DNA of 64,000 nucleotides from a virus (IMGVR_UViG_3300033463_000080:1-64000); one strand, 5' to 3'; positions 4,466-46,732 are shown, counted from the first letter of the stretch. Translations and numbers: made by a program. Notes: generated from the letters alone by a model not told the origin.

Positions 4466-5386
4466 ATGAGCGAGACGGGAATCATCAATCAGGAGCAGAA
4501 CACGGGGATCCAGATGCCGACACAGTACGCAATGAACGTATGGCAGAACAAGGAAGCGTTTGAGCAGACGGCGCGGGTGGCGAACATGCTGTCCAAATCC
4601 ACGATTGTTCCGGAGCAGTATCGGGGCAAGCCTGAAGACTGCTTCATCGCCGTCGAGATGGCGGCGCGGATGAACACTTCGCCGATCTTTATTATGCAGA
4701 ACCTCTACGTTGTGAAGGGCAAACCGACCTGGGCGGGACAGGCGTGCATGGCGATGATCACCAGCTGCGGAAAGTTCCGGAACGTGAGACATGTCTACAC
4801 TGGAACGCGCGGCACGGAGAACCGTGGATGCTATGTGACGGCGGAGCGCATTGCGGACGGCGAGGTGCTGCATGGGACGGAAGTCACGATTGAAATGGCG
4901 AAGGGCGAAGGCTGGTTGAACAACAGCAAGTGGAAGAACATGCCGGAACAGATGCTCGGATACAGGGCGGCATCGTTCTTCGCCAGGATGTTCTGCCCGG
5001 AAGCACTGATGGGACTCCAGACAACGGAAGAGATTTACGACGCCGATCCGGTAATGCCCGTTGCGGAAGCGCCGAGCGCAGCGAACCTGAGCAACGCGAT
5101 CCTTGAGGAAGAAACGCCGTCTGAACCGGAAAAGAAACAGACACGCAAGAAGAGCAAGACGGAAGAACCGGCTTCCGCACCGAAGTGCGTATGCGAAGTG
5201 TGCGGAAAAGAAATCATCGGTGTGAGCGGATACACGGCGGAGCAGATTGTGGCGGCCGGAAAACAGAAGTACGGCAAAGCGCTGTGCGTGGACTGCGGAC
5301 AGAAAGCGAAAGCGGAAGCTGAACGGAAGGCCGCCGAGGAACAGGACGATCTCGCCGCGCAGCTGATGGCGGCAGCAGAAGAATAA
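4466..5386 (+). CDS. RecT/Redbeta-like single-strand annealing protein
   Basis: IVPEQYRGKPEDCFIA, MQNLYVVKGKP, WKNMPEQMLGYRAASFFARMFCPEALMG; lies between exonuclease and SSB. Confidence 0.8.
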   Translation: MSETGIINQEQNTGIQMPTQYAMNVWQNKEAFEQTARVANMLSKSTIVPEQYRGKPEDCFIAVEMAARMNTSPIFIMQNLYVVKGKPTWAGQACMAMITSCGKFRNVRHVYTGTRGTENRGCYVTAERIADGEVLHGTEVTIEMAKGEGWLNNSKWKNMPEQMLGYRAASFFARMFCPEALMGLQTTEEIYDADPVMPVAEAPSAANLSNAILEEETPSEPEKKQTRKKSKTEEPASAPKCVCEVCGKEIIGVSGYTAEQIVAAGKQKYGKALCVDCGQKAKAEAERKAAEEQDDLAAQLMAAAEE

Positions 5387-6399: not shown

Positions 6400-6435
6400 A
6401 GGTAATTTTGACGCAATAAGTTAGATGGTGAAGAT

Positions 6436-24740: not shown

Positions 24741-24776
24741 GAACAGGGACGGAGCGGATTCCGTTCCTGTTTTTTA
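24741..24776 (+). terminator. intrinsic terminator
   Basis: AACAGGGA...TTCCTGTT followed by a T-run. Confidence 0.65.
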
Positions 24777-25162
24777 GCAAGAGCAATGTGTCACGTAATA
24801 GGACTAGGATTATATGATAAATGTACATTATGTACACTCATATCTATATTTATATATCCCCAACGTAGCAGGTTGCTTTTGCTATCCGGAGAGAATCAGC
24901 GTTCGGAGTGTGCAGCTGACGGCGATCCGGAATGGATGACCTCGGATCGTGGCAACAGAATTGCGGAACGGAACGACTGCGAAGCAACTATTCGTAAAAG
25001 CATAGTTTCACGAATAGTTGATATACCATATATTGTATGCTTCATCAGGCGATGCACGAGATGATCCGAAATGAATAAATATGCAATGGCATGCACATGA
25101 ATATGCAAAAATTGCATTCATGAACGGAGCGAATATCGGCTGAATATGCAAAAAAAAGGCAC

Positions 25163-25203
25163 AAAAAAAGACCCGCCCAGGCCGAAGCCTGAGCGGGCGG
25201 GTA
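25163..25203 (-). terminator. intrinsic terminator ending the minus-strand operon
   Basis: Minus strand: GC stem with UUCG loop then a U7 run. Confidence 0.75.
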
Positions 25204-25219
25204 GGGTAACGGAGCGGAA

Positions 25220-25612
25220 TCAAAAGTCGGTGATCTCTTCCAGACAGAACGGATCGTTCGGGTTGGTGGTGTTGTCGATGACGGCGATCAGCGTATCAGG
25301 GTAGGCATTGCGCTGCTTCCTGGCCATGGTTTTTGCTTCTTCCAGGCTATAGCTGCCGGTTCCCCAGTCGTCTTCGCGGTTTGTTTGGACGGCGTACCAG
25401 AGGCGCGGAGCGGGATCGTCGTCCAGGGTGATGTCCTCGACGACGTCTTCCGGGGCGTAGATGACGTGCAGTTCGCCATCCAGGTCGTTGGCCTTGTTCT
25501 GCATGGCGAATTCGAAGTCTTCGTATTCGCCGGTCGGGTCAGAGATGTTCTTCCGGATCAGGTGGATGCCGTCGTTGGCCTCGATGACTGCGGTGTACAG
25601 GGTCTTTTCCAT
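25220..25612 (-). CDS. acidic hypothetical early protein
   Basis: AGGAGG RBS, 130 aa. Confidence 0.7.
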   Translation of the reverse strand: MEKTLYTAVIEANDGIHLIRKNISDPTGEYEDFEFAMQNKANDLDGELHVIYAPEDVVEDITLDDDPAPRLWYAVQTNREDDWGTGSYSLEEAKTMARKQRNAYPDTLIAVIDNTTNPNDPFCLEEITDF

Positions 25613-25615
25613 GGG

Positions 25616-25828
25616 TTAGTCCTCCTTCTTGTTGTCGATGATAAGAATCTTTTTAAACTCCGTGGATAGGTCTGCCCGGATCAGCTGTCGGATGTAGTCC
25701 TGCTTTGACGGAACGGATGAAAGCTTTTCGATCACGTCGGCGTCGGTCCGGTTATTGAACTTGAACGTGTAAAATGTGCAGTTTGCGCTGTCGTACTTTC
25801 GCTGCGCTATGGTGTGGTTGTTCGGCAT
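25616..25828 (-). CDS. ribbon-helix-helix-like DNA-binding protein
   Basis: FYTFKFN...DADVIEKLSSVPSKQDYIRQLIRAD pattern. Confidence 0.65.
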   Translation of the reverse strand: MPNNHTIAQRKYDSANCTFYTFKFNNRTDADVIEKLSSVPSKQDYIRQLIRADLSTEFKKILIIDNKKED

Positions 25829-25845
25829 GGTCAGTCCTCCTTGAA

Positions 25846-25887
25846 TAGGTATGGACTTATCATACCACCGGAACGATCCGGAATCAA
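25846..25887 (-). promoter_or_regulatory. sigmaA promoter with TAGGT-N4-ACTTA operator-like site
   Basis: Minus strand TTGATT-17bp-TATGAT; operator-like box at 25846-25859. Confidence 0.7.
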
Positions 25888-26159
25888 GATGTCACCTCCT
25901 TCGCTGCCCGGACTTCATCCGGGTAGTTTTCCTTCATGAAGTCGATGTAGTTGTCGGCGTCGTTGTCGATCTGGGATTCAAACATGTCCCAGTCGAAGCA
26001 TCCGTCTTCGTCGGTGGCATCGATGACGGCGTTGTCGTGGCATTCATCCATCCAGTCTTCCGGACGGATGCCTGTTTCATGTTCGATGCGGTCAAGCGCC
26101 TTGCGGACGATGCCTGTTGTGGATCCGTATCCGATGCGGATGATAGCTTTTTTGTCCAT
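25884..26159 (-). CDS. very acidic hypothetical protein
   Basis: GGAGGT RBS, 91 aa, D/E-rich. Confidence 0.7.
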   Translation of the reverse strand: MDKKAIIRIGYGSTTGIVRKALDRIEHETGIRPEDWMDECHDNAVIDATDEDGCFDWDMFESQIDNDADNYIDFMKENYPDEVRAAKEVTS

Positions 26160-26225
26160 GAGGGACCTCCTTCTCCAGCTGGTGCTGGCTACGAGAGGCG
26201 GAGGTCCGTCTCCCGGGTGCCAGGA

Positions 26226-26549
26226 TCAGGTGGCAATTGCTTCCTTGTGACGTGTCTTCAGAACGGACGTGTCGTTTCCCGGACGTTCGTAGTGGAACGG
26301 ATAGTCGACTGTGACGAACCATTCGTCATCTTTCAGCTGGATCTCGTGGATGTAACTGTTCTGGATGATGTACATTGTGTGTCCATCCACTTCGTCGTCC
26401 GATGTGCAGGTGAGATATGCCCATCCTTTTCCGATGGAAAACCAGTTGATTGTGTAGTTGATTTTTCTGGTGTCGTTGATGTCCGCCCTGCACCAGTAGC
26501 GGAACGTGCGGCCTTTCCACCAGGCCAGCGGCCGGTCCTTCAGCTTCAT
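26226..26549 (-). CDS. hypothetical early protein
   Basis: GGAGAGG RBS; stop in repeat B. Confidence 0.65.
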   Translation of the reverse strand: MKLKDRPLAWWKGRTFRYWCRADINDTRKINYTINWFSIGKGWAYLTCTSDDEVDGHTMYIIQNSYIHEIQLKDDEWFVTVDYPFHYERPGNDTSVLKTRHKEAIAT

Positions 26550-26551
26550 GC

Positions 26552-27046
26552 TCAATCCTCTCCTTTCGTCACCCAGCCGATGCGGGCCAGGTCTTTGTCG
26601 GACGGTTCCCAGTACTCGTCGTACTCGTCCGTGTCTGGATTGTACTTCGCAACGTATGCGCTGCAGTTGTAGATCATGTAGTCCCAATCAATGATCTGAT
26701 CTTCGGTCGGTCCTTCCGGATCCCACTCTTCAGATTGCTGCCACATCCAATTAAGCAGCAGGTCAAGCGTATCCTGCTTCGCCTGGGCAAAGGATACGGA
26801 ATGGAAACCGTCGCAGCAATCATCGCTGCTCCAGATGACACTCCATGTATCGCGCTTGATCGGCTTGCGCTTGCTGATCGCGATGATCGCGTTCGCAACG
26901 TCGATGTACGGAAACTGCATGCCGTCAGGGTATCCATGTTTCAAATCGGATATGATCTGTTCTCCGTCGGTTGTGCCATAGGTGTACTCATCGCATCCGT
27001 GTTCCGCCAGGACGGAACGTGCATAATCTTTGACTTCCTTGCGCAT
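26552..27046 (-). CDS. acidic hypothetical early protein
   Basis: GGAGG RBS, 164 aa. Confidence 0.7.
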   Translation of the reverse strand: MRKEVKDYARSVLAEHGCDEYTYGTTDGEQIISDLKHGYPDGMQFPYIDVANAIIAISKRKPIKRDTWSVIWSSDDCCDGFHSVSFAQAKQDTLDLLLNWMWQQSEEWDPEGPTEDQIIDWDYMIYNCSAYVAKYNPDTDEYDEYWEPSDKDLARIGWVTKGED

Positions 27047-27116
27047 GTTATGTCCTCCGTTTCTCCGGTACTGGTACCGGCTACGAGGTCTCCGGCGGAG
27101 GCCCCGTGTGCCGAGA

Positions 27117-27266
27117 TCAGGCAGGAACGATTGCGATGATGTCTGCCAGCGCGATTACTCTGCATTCATCCAGGATGATGTATCCTGGTTTCAGCGTGGC
27201 CGGTTCGATCTTGTTTGCGTAGAGGATGCGAGGCAGGTCGTTGCCTCCGACGGTGATGATCTTCAT
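27117..27266 (-). CDS. 49-aa hypothetical protein (MKIITVGGNDLPRIL...)
   Basis: TAATG coupling; stop in repeat B; below the ORF-track cutoff. Confidence 0.55.
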   Translation of the reverse strand: MKIITVGGNDLPRILYANKIEPATLKPGYIILDECRVIALADIIAIVPA

Positions 27267-27808
27267 TACTCATCTCTCCCTTCAAAATCCAGTCCGTACT
27301 CACGGACGTTGTCGCAGTAGTCCCGGTATTCCTGCTCCATCCAACGCTTGTTCTCCAGGATCGGGCCTACGAGTTCCGCCAGGTCGATCTTCACCGGATC
27401 GGAGCGGATGTCCCATACTTCCATGTTGTCCATATATCCGCATTCCCGGTCGGTTTCGTACAACTCCGCGATCTTTCTCCCGGTCTCGATACTGGCGGAG
27501 GTTTCACCGTCGATGGTAACCTTCAGCAGGTATTCCCGGTTCGGTCGTTCGCGTTCTTCCTTTTCGCGTTTTGCCCGGGCCTTGTCCTCTGTTACGCAGT
27601 AGTTCCACACAAGCAGCATGGTTGCCGGATCGTTCAGTCCGCCGATCAGCGGTTCATCAGGATCCTGGAATTCCTGCATGCCTTCGATCTGGGTCTTTGC
27701 GTCGTCCAGATTGGTCATCAGTTCCAGTTCGTCGAGATCGGCGTATGCGTTGTACTGGAAAATTACCTCGATCTCTTCGGCCAAAGCGGCCTTCATCTTC
27801 TCTGTCAT
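27266..27808 (-). CDS. acidic hypothetical early protein
   Basis: GGAGG RBS. Confidence 0.7.
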   Translation of the reverse strand: MTEKMKAALAEEIEVIFQYNAYADLDELELMTNLDDAKTQIEGMQEFQDPDEPLIGGLNDPATMLLVWNYCVTEDKARAKREKEERERPNREYLLKVTIDGETSASIETGRKIAELYETDRECGYMDNMEVWDIRSDPVKIDLAELVGPILENKRWMEQEYRDYCDNVREYGLDFEGRDE

Positions 27809-28128
27809 TGTTGATCTCCTCCATCTCTTGTCCATATAATTTCCGTGCCATCGGAGAACATGTCCAGTACCGAACGGGGGCGTCCTACTTCCATTATGTC
27901 GAACATTGAATCGTATTTTGTGTCTAAGTCTTCAAATGTCTGTGTCCTAACAAATTCCATTGCCTCGTTGTATTCGGACAAGTCCACCCAGTTTGTTATT
28001 TTCCTGTTTTTGTTGATAAGAATGGCGATGTCCTTGTACCCGTCAATGCTCGTATTCTTCATGACGGCGTATTGCCGACCGGTTCTAAGCTTTATGACCA
28101 TTCCAGTCTTCAGATCTGATATGTTCAT
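27805..28128 (-). CDS. hypothetical protein (MNISDLKTGMVIKLRTG)
   Basis: AT-richer ORF with RBS. Confidence 0.65.
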   Translation of the reverse strand: MNISDLKTGMVIKLRTGRQYAVMKNTSIDGYKDIAILINKNRKITNWVDLSEYNEAMEFVRTQTFEDLDTKYDSMFDIMEVGRPRSVLDMFSDGTEIIWTRDGGDQQ

Positions 28129-28403
28129 GCTTTTCCTCCTTTCCATTCGTCGCACAGCTTTTTCCATTCCCCGTTTGCAATGTAGTTGCTGATAAAGTCG
28201 AGCGCATCTACGAGCGACGTGACTTTTCCGATGCACTTCCTGCAGTTCGTGGGCCAGAGATCGTCTCCGATCCATTTGTGTCCTTTCTGGTAGATTAAAA
28301 TCGTTCCGCCATTTTCAGAACTAATTCTCAGGATGCCTTCGATCTTGACGCTTCCGCAGTCAATGTTCAGGACCTTCGTGGTCTTCTGCCTGTTCGCTTC
28401 CAT
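28125..28403 (-). CDS. hypothetical protein
   Basis: GGAGG RBS, coupled. Confidence 0.6.
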   Translation of the reverse strand: MEANRQKTTKVLNIDCGSVKIEGILRISSENGGTILIYQKGHKWIGDDLWPTNCRKCIGKVTSLVDALDFISNYIANGEWKKLCDEWKGGKA

Positions 28404-28471
28404 ACTCTTCCTCCTTCTTCAGCGTCTGGCGCTGACTACGGGATCCCCGGTGGAGGTCCCGTGTGTCAATG

Positions 28472-28633
28472 TCAGATGTTCCCGCAGTCGAAGTCGTTCT
28501 GGATGTCGCACAGTTCACAGTAGAGACGTTCGCCGGCGTCGCCGGCGTCTCCGGAACCGTCGTCCTCTTCGTAGTGCGTAAGCGCAGCGCACAACCGGTC
28601 GTAGAGGTTATCGAGTCTTGTCTTATCGTCCAT
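28472..28633 (-). CDS. 53-aa acidic hypothetical protein
   Basis: AGGAGG RBS; stop in repeat B. Confidence 0.55.
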   Translation of the reverse strand: MDDKTRLDNLYDRLCAALTHYEEDDGSGDAGDAGERLYCELCDIQNDFDCGNI

Positions 28634-28646
28634 GCTGATCCTCCTT

Positions 28647-28916
28647 TCAGTACCAGTATTCGTCTGGCATGTATTCCAGTTCGTATGCTCCGTCGTTGTC
28701 CGGGCCGGTCTCTTCCCAGTTGTTGATGATGTCCATGAGCAGCAGGTCCGGGGACAGGTCTCCTTCGCCGGTCGTACTGTCGAAGATGACCGTGCTGGTG
28801 CCTTCTCCGCCGCAGGACAGGTTCCCGTGTTCGTCGAGAATGTCCGGAGCGGGTACGTATCGGATAATCCGCAGATGGTCATCCGGGTGGGCGTCGATCC
28901 AGTCGTAGATTTTCAT
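28647..28916 (-). CDS. acidic hypothetical protein
   Basis: GGAGG RBS. Confidence 0.6.
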   Translation of the reverse strand: MKIYDWIDAHPDDHLRIIRYVPAPDILDEHGNLSCGGEGTSTVIFDSTTGEGDLSPDLLLMDIINNWEETGPDNDGAYELEYMPDEYWY

Positions 28917-28930
28917 GTTGTGTTTCCTCC

Positions 28931-29686
28931 TTACATTGCCGCCACACAGGCGGAGGTTGTCCACCAGTTCAGCAGGTAGTCTACCGTTTCATCCGGGTAC
29001 TTGTAGATGAACAGCTTGCTCAGATCTGCGCCGTCCCGGAGGTACCCGTAGCCTTTGCCCTCCCGTTTTGGATCTGGGAGCATCTCGCAGCCGGGAGCGT
29101 CGATCAGATACCGGGACTGCTGTTTCGTTGCTGTCCGGAGTCCAAGGACTGTGCTGAAGTTGCACTTCAGAACGGTCGGGATGGTGATCGCAAGCACGTT
29201 TTGTGTGCATGCGATGACGTGGACCCGGGCCGCGCGGCCAACCTGAGCCAGACGCTGCAGCAGCGGCAGGGCCGCTTTCTTCTGCGTCGTCATCAAGTCT
29301 GCCAGTTCGTCGATGATGACGTACATGTGCGATCCGTCGTACTCTTTCGCTCCGAACGACTGCATGGCGGAAAACCGCCGGTCTGTTTCGTCGCATGCCC
29401 ATTGCAGCGCGCGGATCATGTCTGCCGGTTCGGACGCATACTTCGCTACGTGCGGAAGGCGGCTGTATTCCACCAGTTCGACCTTTTTCGGATCGATCAG
29501 AACGAACTCGCACCGGAACGGGGACTGCGTATACAATAGGGAAGTGATGATCCCGTTCACGGCAACGGACTTTCCGGAGCCGGTCGCACCCGCGATCAGC
29601 AGATGCGGCCGGTCGGCAAGGTCGAGGAACGGCCGGTAAACGGAACCGGCAGGTGTCCTGTACGTGCGAGGGATGGCGTGCAGCAT
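28931..29686 (-). CDS. stand-alone FtsK/SpoIIIE-type ATPase motor domain
   Basis: PHLLIAGATGSGKS, FVLIDPKKVEL, YVIIDELADLM, LAQVGRAARVHVIACTQ; no TM or gamma domain. Confidence 0.9.
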   Translation of the reverse strand: MLHAIPRTYRTPAGSVYRPFLDLADRPHLLIAGATGSGKSVAVNGIITSLLYTQSPFRCEFVLIDPKKVELVEYSRLPHVAKYASEPADMIRALQWACDETDRRFSAMQSFGAKEYDGSHMYVIIDELADLMTTQKKAALPLLQRLAQVGRAARVHVIACTQNVLAITIPTVLKCNFSTVLGLRTATKQQSRYLIDAPGCEMLPDPKREGKGYGYLRDGADLSKLFIYKYPDETVDYLLNWWTTSACVAAM

Positions 29687-29865
29687 TAGCACTCCTCCTT
29701 TCCGATCCAGACGATGTTCTTGGTTTCAATACGGTAGTCATTGCCTTCCGGATCGTTGAAGTAGGCGTACTGCCCGTCGAATCCGACACCGGTTGTGTTG
29801 CACAGGTCAACTTCGACTTCGACCAGTCCGATCTCGTCGCGGTAGCAAATCTTCATCGTGTACAT
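29686..29865 (-). CDS. 59-aa hypothetical protein (MYTMKICYRDEIG...)
   Basis: GGAGG RBS, TAATG-coupled to the FtsK gene; read by hand. Confidence 0.55.
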   Translation of the reverse strand: MYTMKICYRDEIGLVEVEVDLCNTTGVGFDGQYAYFNDPEGNDYRIETKNIVWIGKEEC

Positions 29866-29881
29866 GCTTTTCCTCCTCTCG

Positions 29882-29934
29882 TAGGTATTTACCTATTCTA
29901 TTGTAACATGGATTTTGAAATAGGTCAATACCTG
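29882..29934 (-). promoter_or_regulatory. sigmaA promoter bracketed by two TAGGT-N4-ACCT operators
   Basis: Minus strand TTGACC-17bp-TACAAT; perfect palindrome TAGGTATTTACCTA at 29882-29895; TAGGTCAATACCTG at 29921-29934. Confidence 0.75.
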
Positions 29935-29998
29935 TTTTGAATTTCCCGATGACTGGCATCGGCTACGAGCGACGGTGTGCGTCGCCCGGGTGTCGGTG

Positions 29999-30250
29999 TC
30001 AGCTGTCCTTCTTTGCAGGGTTCCGGAGCGTCACGCCGCGCAGCACTTTGATAACGGCAGCGGCGTGTCCGTTCAGCGTCAGTCCGAAGACGATGTCCTT
30101 CGCGAACTCTTCGGACATGCTCATGGCCGGTTCGCCGGCCTTCCATTCGGCCTGGTTGTGCGACGGGATCCCGGTCACGTAGCGGGCGTAGATCTCCCCG
30201 TCTTCATAAAAGAAGACACACACATGCGTTTCGAATCTCGGATTGCCCAT
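29999..30250 (-). CDS. hypothetical protein
   Basis: Bounded on both sides by repeat B. Confidence 0.65.
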   Translation of the reverse strand: MGNPRFETHVCVFFYEDGEIYARYVTGIPSHNQAEWKAGEPAMSMSEEFAKDIVFGLTLNGHAAAVIKVLRGVTLRNPAKKDS

Positions 30251-30321
30251 AGATTTTCCTCACTTTCTTCGCTGTCTGGCAGCGACCACGAGCGGCCAAC
30301 GTGGGCCGCCCGGTGTCGGTG

Positions 30322-30504
30322 TCAGAGTTCCTGATAGTACTGCACACTGGTGATGGTGACCGGACACCATGTCGCCGGGTCAATCCCGGTGACGGAGCCG
30401 TCTTCCCAGCGGGCGTCCCACAGCATTGTGCTGACGGTCTCGCCGTCTTCATCGATGTAGGTCACAACGGCGCGACGTGTGGTTGTGAAGTCTTTCAGTT
30501 TCAT
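30322..30504 (-). CDS. hypothetical protein (MKLKDFT...)
   Basis: GGAGGT RBS; stop in repeat B. Confidence 0.6.
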   Translation of the reverse strand: MKLKDFTTTRRAVVTYIDEDGETVSTMLWDARWEDGSVTGIDPATWCPVTITSVQYYQEL

Positions 30505-30893
30505 GCTTTCACCTCCGTGTTGTATTCCATCCACACCCGTCCGTGACGGATGCCTTCCGGTACCCTGAACGGTTCGATTCTCTGGATGTCGTACAGCGGG
30601 TACATGTATTTGACCTTCGTTTCGTCCTGCCAGTCGTATGGACTGCCGTCGTCGATGCCTGTCCACTTCTTGCATGCGTTCCATGCGTCCCGTGAGCGGG
30701 CGACGAGCGGGTCACCGATGGTGACCATGCAGCGTGCCAGGGGCGCGCCGTGACCCGTCTCTGCCAGAATGACGCGCTGTCCGATCAGGCTGCGCAGCAT
30801 GTTGCGCGTCCGGGTCTCGTACAGTTTTGTCAGGCGGAGGATCATGTCAACGAACGGGAACAGACGGCAGTTGATAAAGACTACCGGGATCAT
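30501..30893 (-). CDS. ASCH-like hypothetical protein
   Basis: FVDMILRLTKLYETRTR...IGQRV resembles the ASCH N-terminus. Confidence 0.55.
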   Translation of the reverse strand: MIPVVFINCRLFPFVDMILRLTKLYETRTRNMLRSLIGQRVILAETGHGAPLARCMVTIGDPLVARSRDAWNACKKWTGIDDGSPYDWQDETKVKYMYPLYDIQRIEPFRVPEGIRHGRVWMEYNTEVKA

Positions 30894-31162
30894 TCGTCCA
30901 CCTCCCATGTCGGCCAGATCGGCCGGCTGAATTGATACGGAGCCGGGGCCGCAGCCGTCACGACGAGCGGAGCGGACTTGCTTGCTGTCCGGTATACCCG
31001 GAGCGTCCCGGCGCGGTACGGTATCCGGATGTGTGTGAAACCGCCTTCGGTGCTGAAGCTGTAGCGGATTCTGTGCGCGCGCAATGCTGCGGCGGCATCC
31101 TTCTCCGTCCGTATGCCCTTCAGAATGGAGCGGATACGGTTTGCTGTTACCAGAATGTTCAT
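30890..31162 (-). CDS. basic hypothetical protein
   Basis: Coupled ORF. Confidence 0.6.
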   Translation of the reverse strand: MNILVTANRIRSILKGIRTEKDAAAALRAHRIRYSFSTEGGFTHIRIPYRAGTLRVYRTASKSAPLVVTAAAPAPYQFSRPIWPTWEVDE

Positions 31163-31235
31163 ATTGCTTTCCCTGCCTTTCTCCGGTATCTGGTACCGGC
31201 TACGCTGTCCGGAGTCCGGGCAGCGGGTGCCGATG

Positions 31236-31736
31236 TCAGCGGACGACGATCATTCCGGACTGGATTCGTGCGCCCGGGAAATACTTCAGATACTCCCGGA
31301 GCGGCGCGTTCCTCTGGTACTGGTCCGGGCCTGTCTTGCGCCCGGTCCCGGAGCGGTCGCCTTCGTATACCGTGATGTATCCGATGCCGCCGGTCTGAGT
31401 CACGATGTGCTGAATCCATGCGGCGATACTTCCCACTTCAAGGTCGTTGTCGATCACGTTCAGCACGTTGCTGCAGATGACCGTCATCGGTGTGTGGGTG
31501 TGCAGCGCGATCCGGACGAGTGCCAGAGTGTCCCGGTTCACCTGTTCTGGTTGATTGAACGGGTCGTATGGCAGGTATGCCAGATGCCCGGGAAGTGCTG
31601 CCCGGATGTGATCCGTATACCGTCCGCATCCCCAGTCCAGAACGACCTTCCCGGTGAAGTACGGTACCCGGCTGTATATCGCCGGGAGTCGACGGCTGTT
31701 GATTGAAGTCGCCGCGCTTGTGCATGTTTGCGCCAT
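31236..31736 (-). CDS. class I SAM-dependent methyltransferase
   Basis: VVLDWGCGRY (motif I), YDPFN, VICSNVLNVI. Confidence 0.8.
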   Translation of the reverse strand: MAQTCTSAATSINSRRLPAIYSRVPYFTGKVVLDWGCGRYTDHIRAALPGHLAYLPYDPFNQPEQVNRDTLALVRIALHTHTPMTVICSNVLNVIDNDLEVGSIAAWIQHIVTQTGGIGYITVYEGDRSGTGRKTGPDQYQRNAPLREYLKYFPGARIQSGMIVVR

Positions 31737-31808
31737 GTTTCTTTCCTCCTTCTTCAGTGCGTCTGGCACTGACTACCGGCTCCGGTGTCCGGGGCCGGTC
31801 TGTCAATG

Positions 31809-32006
31809 TCAAGCTGTGCGTGCTGTCCGGTGTACGTTGCGCCATGCGGAATGCATGTCGTATGTATCCGGAAGAATGAACGGTTCGGGCCTCCGCTGTC
31901 TGGCCTGTGCGGATTCTATCCGCTGCCTGATTCGTCTGGCATCCAGTTCCTCGACGGTCTCGGATTCGGTCAGCGACCGAATGGCCTGATTGATCATGTC
32001 CATCAT
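31809..32006 (-). CDS. hypothetical protein
   Basis: GGAGG RBS; stop in repeat B. Confidence 0.55.
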   Translation of the reverse strand: MMDMINQAIRSLTESETVEELDARRIRQRIESAQARQRRPEPFILPDTYDMHSAWRNVHRTARTA

Positions 32007-32032
32007 GTTTCTTTCCTCCTGCTTTTTGTTGG

Positions 32033-32484
32033 GGGACTATCGCCCCGGGACTGCCTCCGTCGGAGCGGGGACAGTACCGGGGCGGCCGCCGGAGCGGCCG
32101 CCCTTCGTGATTAGCTGATCCGGAGCGGACGAGTTACCGTCTGCGTCATGTACGGGGCCAGGACTTCCGCCGGGAAGGCGGCCTTGACTTTCGTCGTGTC
32201 CAGGCGGTTACTCGTGACCGTCTTATATGTGACCTTGTACGGCCCGACGGTCGCGGTTTCGGTCTCGCCCATGGCGGCCTTGATTTTGTCCTGTGCGGCC
32301 TCGATGGCGGCGTCAAGTTCCTCGCGCATCCGCTTCAGTTCCTGAAGTTCCTGAATGTCCCGGATCATCATCGCATCGTTACCCATTGTTTTTTCCTCCT
32401 CTTTTTTTGTGGGACTATCGTCCCTGACCATCGTCCGGAGCGGACCGGGCGACGGTCAGGGACGGCCGCCGGAGCGGCCGCCCT
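32033..32484. repeat. hairpin junction repeat family C, 2 copies (GGGACTATCG-[long stem-loop]-CGGCCGCCGGAGCGGCCGCCCTT)
   Basis: Copies at about 32033-32105 and 32411-32484 share both flanks; inner stems differ. Confidence 0.8.
32111..32386 (-). CDS. hypothetical coiled-coil protein, resembles the YqaJ C-terminal region or Mu Gam-like proteins
   Basis: ELKRMREELDAAIEAAQDKIKAAMG...YKVTYKTVTSNRLDT. Confidence 0.5.
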   Translation of the reverse strand: MGNDAMMIRDIQELQELKRMREELDAAIEAAQDKIKAAMGETETATVGPYKVTYKTVTSNRLDTTKVKAAFPAEVLAPYMTQTVTRPLRIS

Positions 32485-32486
32485 TG

Positions 32487-40179: not shown

Positions 40180-40324
40180 TGTAAACGCAATTTGCGATTA
40201 CATAAATGCGAACCTTATCAATTGAAGATGGAAACTTGGCGGATAGGCCGACGGGCCGAAGAGTGGAGACGCCTTACCACCTGCCGCCAAGTAACCATAA
40301 AGGCGAACTACGGAGGCGATAGTT

Positions 40325-46014: not shown

Positions 46015-46732
46015 ATGCCCAGTGTAAAAGGTATTTCGACCTATCAGACTTACCTGATGTACAGGACGACCACGAACGGCGACTATGCCAAGCTGATCGA
46101 CATCACGTCCTTCCCGGATCTGATTCCTCCGAAGGAGAGAATCGACATCACCTCGCTGAGTGACTACATGCGTAGACTGTAATGCGCCTTTGCCCGGTAA
46201 CGGGCATAGCAAACCTGTTTAATTGCCGGAAACTCTCCGCATTGATACCGGGTGCGGAGACAATCGGCAGCCAAGGCTGGAAACGGCAAGGTTCAACGAC
46301 TATCCCGAAAGGGAGTACGCCGCAAGCGATTGGCGGCGGAAATGGCAGGGATCCGGAAACGGATCGTGAGATAGTCTGATCTCCATGGCGACATGGAGCA
46401 GTCCGAAAGGACGGTTGCGGAGCAGCGACCCGCAGCGAACACAAGTGGTTTACATCAGCGGTATCGGCGATACCTCCGAGTTCCAGTTCGGTGCGAACTA
46501 CACGCCCGAGAACTATGCGAAGGTGAAGGCCCTGGAAAACAACGTCTACGGTTACGCCGTATGGTTCGGCGCGTCCGGTTCCGCAGGTTCGGAAGATCCG
46601 GACGGCCACTACGGAAAGTTCAGCTGGACCGGCGACATCTCTGCGGGTATTTCCGGCGGTGGCGTGAACGAAGCGGTTGGTATGACCATTAACTGCACGC
46701 CCAGCACGGTTGTTGTGTACAGTTCCACCTGA
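46015..46732 (+). CDS. major tail (tube) protein, spliced: exon 1 46015-46173, exon 2 46448-46732, 147 aa
   Basis: Joining gives ERIDITSLSDYMR|VYISGIGDTSEFQFGANY, a continuous tail-tube motif. Confidence 0.85.
46174..46447 (+). ncRNA. group I intron (IA-like), 274 nt, no ORF
   Basis: 5' exon ends in U, intron ends in G; P AATTGCCGGAAACTC, Q AATCGGCAGC, R TTCAACGACTA, S GAGATAGTCT; P2, P7.1, P8, P9 closed by GNRA loops. Confidence 0.9.

Follow-up and report, generated by a model that had tools for sequence, protein, structure and literature searches.

Accessory regions of phage genomes are a testing ground for new genes, including genes for host takeover and anti-defence, and the gain, expression and exchange of such genes are largely unexplained outside the T4-type phages. 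In these, mobile regulatory cassettes termed PeSLs (promoter-early stem-loops) run from the stop codon of the upstream gene to the Shine-Dalgarno sequence (SD) of the downstream gene and mediate gene shuffling, the exchange being attributed to homologous recombination between copies (PMC2839356, PMC4122927). Structured intercistronic RNA is also known as a substrate for processing, as RNase III of Bacillus subtilis recognises particular double-stranded RNA structures and cleaves the early mRNA of phage SP82 (PMC4838370). Here we analyse a set of intergenic elements in the viral stretch IMGVR_UViG_3300033463_000080:1-64000 (the window). The phage genome it comes from (G000) has a length of 79,252 bp and direct terminal repeats, and the window covers its first 64 kb. 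The original prediction described the elements as hairpins resembling the attC sites of integrons. We show that each hairpin belongs to a junction unit of about 75 nt, that the units sit between minus-strand open reading frames (ORFs) of an accessory-gene operon, and that they mark the boundaries of shuffled gene cassettes. Their closest known kind is the PeSL.

Structure of the junction units

The seven predicted elements were all recovered. A degenerate pattern derived from the predicted consensus matched exactly six times in the window and not once in 100 shuffles, and the seventh copy (31763), which is one base off the pattern, was recovered by a covariance model. No further copies were found in the full 79-kb genome. 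The prediction of an element of about 50 bp is correct for the hairpin, but this is only a part of the unit, and a third pairing segment had been overlooked. In the direction of the mRNA, the unit runs from the C before UGA through the hairpin (hairpin A) and a short segment X to the SD, after which comes the start codon.

Hairpin A is an interrupted helix of 21 bp, with an 11-bp lower stem, a 3x2 internal loop and a GC-rich upper stem of approximately 10 bp. The internal loop is conserved, with ASAC facing UA on the sense strand, and the outer arms follow the scheme CTGG.../...TCAG with variable middles. As predicted, the inner stem differs in every copy while the pairing is kept, nine of the ten inner pairs showing two-sided changes within the seven copies. 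Among 133 distinct copies from many contigs, 20 of the 21 pairs change on both sides, and 89.8 % of the cells of hairpin A are paired, in comparison with 74 % in shuffles and 32-44 % in slid controls. Segment X, 5-7 nt located after the hairpin, can pair instead with the 3′ arm of the hairpin and thus form helix B, which encloses a loop of approximately CCAGA on the mRNA strand. The pairings include CCGGTA/TACCGG, CAGCG/CGCTG and CCGATG/CATCGG. Helix B reaches at least five perfect Watson-Crick pairs in 125 of the 151 distinct units, whereas swapping of the downstream partners between units lowered this number to about 24 of 151. On the sense RNA, folds A and B differ by -2.1 +/- 2.6 kcal/mol and lie within 3 kcal/mol of each other in 91 of 139 units, and the predicted minimum free energy structures switch between the two folds from copy to copy. 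A role in RNA is suggested by the additional pairing segment and by the similar energies of the two folds on the mRNA.

All seven units lie on the minus strand and are numbered in mRNA order. Unit 1 (31737-31812) begins with the stop of the gene at 31809-32006, contains hairpin A at 31763-31812 and leads through the helix-B partner and the SD to the start of the gene at 31236-31736. The stop of this gene opens unit 2 (31163-31239, hairpin A at 31190-31239), which has the same layout and ends at the start of the gene at 30890-31162. Unit 3 (30251-30325, hairpin A at 30276-30325) likewise joins the stop of the gene at 30322-30504 to the start of the gene at 29999-30250. The stop of the latter opens unit 4 (29866-30002, hairpin A at 29953-30002), in which the helix-B partner is followed by a promoter (P2, 29928-29900) that replaces the immediate SD; the next gene is at 29686-29865. 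The full layout with helix-B partner and SD returns in unit 5 (28404-28475, hairpin A at 28426-28475), between the stop of the gene at 28472-28633 and the start of that at 28125-28403, in unit 6 (27047-27120, hairpin A at 27071-27120, helix B formed by CCGGTA/TACCGG), between the genes at 27117-27266 and 26552-27046, and in unit 7 (26160-26229, hairpin A at 26179-26229), between the genes at 26226-26549 and 25884-26159.

The borders of the unit are sharp. Homology between copies starts at most 2 nt from the C before UGA and stops 60-83 nt downstream, and where the cores of units are near-identical, the fraction of mismatches is about 0.7 at position -1 and no more than 0.09 at positions 1-4. 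In all seven G000 copies the upstream minus-strand ORF ends at the TGA that reads as the outer TCA on the plus strand, as the original prediction had it. Of 184 units in the family, 175 have a stop codon at unit positions 2-4; in 148 of these, the frame of this stop continues without interruption through 40 or more upstream codons, compared with 19 % for the other two frames. The UGA is retained even where the first pair is broken. The start codon follows at a median of 76 nt from unit position 1 (interquartile range 74-77), in agreement with the predicted ribosome-binding site after the other arm of the hairpin.

This anatomy might be that of a translational device. The ribosome terminating at UGA would melt the lower stem and flip fold A into fold B, which would couple or re-initiate translation of the next ORF or let ribosomes bypass the hairpin. 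The position of the stop at the first paired bases, the fixed spacing between stop and start, the near-equal energies of the two folds on the mRNA and the retention of UGA all speak for it. However, the SD is located outside both helices, some units precede a promoter instead of an SD, and forcing the 5′ arm to be single-stranded left the predicted accessibility of the SD (0.66 to 0.65) and of the start codon (0.63 to 0.61) practically unchanged. Translational gating by exposure of the SD is not supported for this last reason, and we regard a translational device in general as unlikely. An SD that is open alike in both folds fits insulation and not gating.

Two other roles were considered and rejected. 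There is no U/T tract after the hairpins and the terminator scan gave no hit at the units, which speaks against intrinsic terminators. A protein-binding palindrome of the form X-CTGG-X′ was dismissed because X varies freely between copies. A promoter of the type TTGAC-N17-19-TANNNT follows the unit in only 7 of 179 cases. Units followed by a strong sigma-70-like promoter (TTGACC, 17 nt, TAnnAT) in place of the SD were noticed at 29900-30002 in the window and, among the relatives, at 30388 in G001, 37032 in G002, 2416 in L298 and 352 in L235. In several relatives the promoter-followed unit splits the array into two transcription units.

Distribution of the units and exchange of gene cassettes

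We searched IMG/VR contigs and metagenome contigs using the covariance model (R1) and the pattern. The profile search recovered 189 units on 112 phage or metagenome contigs, representing 151 distinct hairpins. The orientation of the units agrees with that of the genes in all 189 cases, and no contig carries units on both strands. The 77 segments between units are 156-4616 nt long with a median of 406 nt, so that most of them hold one small gene. The family is undescribed as an RNA or DNA family: Rfam gave no match at the units at the gathering score and none at E<=1, and a literature search with four unit sequences found no paper. A megablast of the module against named phages gave no match either, and the search with the portal protein identified as relatives only distant phages of gut Bacillota. 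For the host, searches of genome contigs resulted in 120 rows with the loose pattern, nearly all of them due to chance, and in nothing above chance with R1.

The units mark the boundaries of shuffled gene cassettes, and this is supported by several comparisons. Three related genomes (G001, G002 and G003) share the flanks of the operon with G000, namely GP88 and a RecE-like fragment on the 5′ side and two small genes on the 3′ side, while between the units the four genomes carry mostly unrelated ORFs. The gene for an FtsK-like protein and the genes at 28647-28916, 30501-30893 and 31236-31736 recur among relatives in other orders and contexts; the FtsK-like gene forms a single cassette between two units in G002 and stands after the last unit in G001. 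G000 and G001 have in common the block of the gene at 31236-31736 with its two units, exactly from the start of the first unit to the end of the second. Hairpin A of unit 5 matches a unit of G001 with different neighbour genes at 48 of 50 positions. The contigs L213 and L298 differ by one extra unit and one extra ORF, inserted in L213 between genes that are adjacent in L298, with the junctions at the CTGA of the units. One and the same unit with its downstream gene was found behind four different upstream genes in one case and behind seven in another. Other pairs of units share the upstream gene and the hairpin and have different downstream genes, and some differ only in the inner stem.

We also examined where high-identity alignments between unit-bearing contigs end. 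Of 82 internal ends, 19 coincide with a unit in both of the aligned contigs, while approximately 2 % would be expected, giving an enrichment of about 12-fold. The identity of units, from counts that include related contigs, is 0.71 in unrelated contexts (the baseline), 0.97 where both neighbours are shared, 0.80 where only the downstream and 0.84 where only the upstream neighbour is shared. As the variants track both neighbours, the units are often chimeric and the exchange does not take place at one fixed point. We refrained from interpreting the clustering of breakpoints at the two unit edges as edge-specific crossover, because the ends of megablast alignments depend on the similarity of the units. 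No contigs resembling mini-circles with terminal overlaps were found. The original claim that the elements delimit shuffled cassettes is thus borne out, since the covariance-model search of related phages revealed gain, loss and reordering of genes with junctions at the elements, and the gene order is not fixed. The predicted cassettes of one to four genes were found as an array of co-oriented cassettes, mostly of single small ORFs, but the site-specific ssDNA (single-stranded DNA) mechanism proposed for them was not supported, as discussed below.

Almost none of the cassette proteins of G000, which derive from heuristic ORF calls, has a match in Pfam or PHROG. The only clear family match is the FtsK/SpoIIIE-like ATPase encoded at 28931-29686, and the remaining matches are weak or to proteins of unknown function.

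RNA module or recombination site

From the sequence features described so far, we tentatively prefer to see the units as portable intercistronic RNA modules of the sense strand, which would provide processing, end protection and insulation together with portable homology for cassette exchange; we rate this as a serious possibility, a little short of even. The unit would supply in fixed order a UGA for any upstream ORF, hairpin A, segment X and the SD. Hairpin A may be the substrate of a double-strand-specific endoribonuclease, for example the RNase III of the host. After a cut near the internal loop, the stable upper hairpin would cap the 3′ end of the upstream cistron, and the freed 3′ arm could fold with X into a 5′-terminal hairpin, helix B, protecting the downstream cistron. 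Each ORFan would in this way become an insulated and stable message irrespective of its neighbours. Since many gene boundaries in many phages carry these same 70-75 nt, the units would double as short homologies, at which a phage RecT-type annealing protein or host recombination may swap, insert or delete cassettes consisting of a unit and a gene. Phage annealing proteins use short, diverged sequences, and lambda Red recombines diverged sequences (PMC2327257). In G000, a RecT-family single-strand annealing protein is encoded at 4466-5386 on the plus strand (28.6 bits, cut-off 24), and we consider it a candidate trans-acting factor for the exchange between units.

We favour the RNA module because the orientation of the units is constant relative to transcription, because a stop codon and an SD are built in at fixed spacing, because the two covarying helices are balanced only on the mRNA, because the SD is open in both folds, and because a second structured family running from stop to SD occurs in the same operon. 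This second family is unrelated to the first and follows the first two genes of the operon (32387-32486 and 32007-32110, minus strand). A GGCGGCCGCTCCGGCGGCCG hairpin is common to its members, a second hairpin is variable, and a GRCGATAGTCCC box and then the SD complete the junction. A second structured junction family is easier to explain by a need at the RNA level than by a recombination site.

Several observations weigh against the RNA module. The plus strand, which is antisense to the genes, folds better as RNA in all seven G000 copies (-28 to -33 compared with -18 to -29 kcal/mol), and the antisense fold is the better one in 132 of the 151 distinct copies with RNA parameters and in 119 of them with DNA parameters. 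At position 4 of the lower stem, 147 of 151 units have the A of UGA facing the C of CCAG, an A.C mismatch on the sense strand that corresponds to a G.T pair on the antisense. A second conserved A.C mismatch of the sense strand (again G.T on the antisense) is found at one upper-stem position in about 60 % of units. The contig L175 (IMGVR_UViG_3300031998_005484) carries the closest FtsK-like protein (85 % identical) and a flank that is 91 % identical, and it has no units, so the units are dispensable even in a close relative of the module. Many rearrangement junctions among relatives are plain gene-gene joins away from units, and the binomial p of the breakpoint enrichment, about 3e-15, was calculated over events that are not independent and include related contigs. 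As for the content of L175, its genes abut directly or have other GCTCCGG-containing hairpins between them.

The strand preference itself is partly due to composition. Shuffled plus strands likewise fold better than shuffled minus strands (about -18 compared with -14 kcal/mol), so the z-scores of the two strands differ little, with means of -4.5 for the plus and -3.8 for the minus strand. The excess of wobble pairs was traced to the one invariant pair at position 4 of the lower stem. When this position is left out, there are 213 G.U-type pairs on the sense and 159 on the antisense strand (75 and 60 in the lower stem, 138 and 99 in the upper stem), and conserved wobble positions exist on each strand, with its own set. 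The original prediction of better folding on the plus strand stands as an observation, while most of the bias comes down to a single pair and base composition; it is not the strong bias of the hand count (about 11 G.T pairs against 4-5). An alternative reason for the conservation of the A.C mismatches is that they bring fold A near the energy of fold B on the sense RNA.

The proposal of attC-like sites has to be judged on the same data. According to it, the plus strand folds as ssDNA, and strand exchange at the base of the hairpin is the work of a tyrosine recombinase (a phage Xer-like enzyme, host XerCD or the phage integrase), which moves cassettes of a unit and an ORF as in integrons. The layout of co-oriented arrays of mostly single small ORFs is integron-like, and the abrupt onset of conservation at unit position 1, the clean indel of a single unit and ORF between L213 and L298, the better antisense folds and the invariant G.T pair also speak for it. 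The original prediction saw no recombinase in the window; this is correct for the window, but the remaining part of the genome encodes two tyrosine recombinases on the minus strand, one Xer-like (70421-71380 of the genome, 6421-7380 of L182) and the other an integrase (76675-77742 of the genome, 12675-13742 of L182). The integrase is conserved in G001 (69 % identity) and has distant matches in G002 and G004.

The presence of the Xer-family gene in G000 counts in favour of the attC-like sites, however, no homologue was found in G001-G005, including the complete G002 with its seven units, and the protein scores 54.5 bits against the integron-integrase model TIGR02249, the cut-off of which is 265. 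The complete G000 genome contains no integron integrase, no serine recombinase was found in it, and the Y1 HUH nuclease (PF01797) is absent. Hairpins of the REP/RAYT or IS200/IS605 type were rejected on account of the missing Y1 transposase. Moreover, the units have no R″/R′ core sequences, the lower stem varies freely and offers a protein little to read, helix B is left without a role, the crossover point is not fixed given that unit variants follow both neighbours, and the strand bias shrinks after control for composition. The units fall short of most of the attC criteria, the site-specific ssDNA mechanism of the original prediction is not supported, and we regard it as very unlikely. Only slightly less improbable in our view is a phage-borne integron-like cassette system without a dedicated integrase, in which the hairpin base at CTGA would be cut, or used for template switching on ssDNA, by host Xer or another structure-specific enzyme, and cassettes would move between phages as discrete modules. 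The two alternatives named in the original prediction, RNase III-type sites and homology for the phage recombinase, fit better than attC, with the RNase III role itself being putative.

A DNA-level element without any role in RNA could also account for the exchange. Dispersed short homologies or fork-stalling hairpins would promote exchange by RecT or RecA, or template switching, and the structure would be selected for stalling or for exposing single strands. Enriched breakpoints, chimeric unit variants and the presence of a RecT gene agree with this, and so does the sequence GAGCGG, found on the antisense strand of 22 of the 151 hairpins and on the sense strand of one. Also consistent with a recombination-prone region is the Chi-like G[AG]AGCGG, which has a genome-wide polarity and clusters in the module (13 on the plus and 0 on the minus strand). 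On the other hand, homology alone requires neither covarying helices nor two balanced alternative folds, nor a constant orientation to transcription; the fixed SD distance and the built-in stop codon would be unneeded, and a need at the RNA level is suggested by the other families of structured junctions in this operon. Such a purely DNA-level element seems improbable to us.

Regarding the Chi-like motif, AddAB responds to Chi sites of the sequence AGCGG in B. subtilis and GAAGCGG in Staphylococcus aureus. In G000, G[AG]AGCGG is polar over the whole genome, with a cluster at 24750-32477 of the window. Genome-wide counts on the plus and minus strands are 25 and 2 for GGAGCGG, 34 and 3 for GAAGCGG, and 197 and 64 for AGCGG. 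The 8-mer CGGAGCGG occurs 14 times on the plus and twice on the minus strand, and 13 of its copies are inside the minus-strand module, antisense to its genes (13 against 0 in the module). The sequence CCGCTCCG was counted 15 times where 2.7 were expected. The polarity is kept in the relatives, including the unit-free L175.

Operon setting and comparison with known systems

The minus-strand operon extends from the putative promoter P1 (33688-33660; TTGAAA, 17 nt, TG-TATGAT), identified by a consensus scan only, to an intrinsic terminator at 25198-25171, for which the terminator scan gave a 12-bp stem, a UUCG loop and a U tract, as had been predicted. The putative internal promoter P2 (29928-29900, minus strand; TTGACC, 17 nt, TG-TACAAT) stands directly after unit 4. 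In other parts of the window, a third junction repeat, TGACGCAATAAGT, is located on the plus strand at 6409, 6751, 11086, 11372, 11505 and 11702 (8 matches at no more than 2 mismatches, 1.3 expected) and clusters in two AT-richer stretches of small genes. A group I intron (Rfam RF00028, 85 bits) lies in the tail-gene region at 46164-46398 on the plus strand, and a match to the Rfam int-alpA RNA (45.1 bits, gathering score 35.8) lies inside the head-gene region at 40236-40303, also on the plus strand.

The unit family represents an adaptor of about 75 nt, composed of a stop, structured RNA and a ribosome site, which is found at close to 200 gene boundaries in over 100 phage contigs and whose presence coincides with gain, loss and reordering of cassettes. 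If the RNA module is the right explanation, it would be a natural plug-and-play insulator for polycistronic expression, of use in synthetic biology and in the annotation of metagenomic phages. If the DNA-level explanation is right, viruses would have an integron-like system. Either way, R1 is a searchable marker of plastic regions in gut and rumen-type phages.

Like attC sites, the units are imperfect hairpins in which the base and the junction regions are conserved and the terminal stem is variable and covarying; the outer arm contains a stop codon, and the cassettes form co-oriented arrays of small, mostly single genes without promoters. Unlike attC sites, the units come without IntI and lack RYYYAAC/GTTRRRY cores. 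Their place is upstream of the downstream ORF, with which they often travel, sometimes travelling with the upstream ORF, and the crossover is not fixed. In addition, the unit contains helix B and the SD, and its strand-specific signal is weak.

The RNase III sites in the early region of T7 and in the early mRNA of SP82 likewise occur repeatedly between cistrons of an early or accessory operon, as hairpins of about 50 nt in which an internal loop separates a lower from an upper stem. Their duplex of about two helical turns corresponds to the 11 + 10 bp with a 3x2 loop found here. We take the geometry of the units, an internal loop flanked by two stems of about 10 bp, to be that of phage RNase III sites, and cleavage of the units is putative. 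The T7 and SP82 sites are not known to have sequence similarity to the units, and anchoring of the stop codon, helix B and cassette shuffling are not described for them.

The SAS and ESAS of Cluster K mycobacteriophages (PMC3203893) are also repeats in one orientation that are tied to translation starts; immediately upstream they have a variable spacer enclosed by imperfect inverted repeats, and like the units they are conserved with the downstream gene family. SAS, however, has the sequence GGGATAGGAGCCC, the arms of ESAS are of conserved sequence and not freely covarying stems, and neither anchoring of the stop codon nor an alternative helix nor a link to cassette exchange is reported for them.

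PeSLs come closest, although they are not the same. A PeSL carries a strong sigma-70 promoter, while only 7 of 179 units precede one, and its stem-loop is a terminator or attenuator, while the hairpins here have no U tract after them. The hairpin of the units is two-storeyed and covarying, with the stop codon anchored in the stem and a second competing helix, and the background is one of Bacillota-type phages instead of T4-like myoviruses. Mini-circles have been demonstrated for PeSLs, whereas we found no terminally redundant mini-contigs. What both have in common is a repeated intergenic motif in hyperplastic regions of ORFans, running from the upstream stop through a stem-loop to the downstream SD and start, and the bounding of indels and replacements between related phages by this motif, seen here in 19 of 82 breakpoints at units compared with 2 %.

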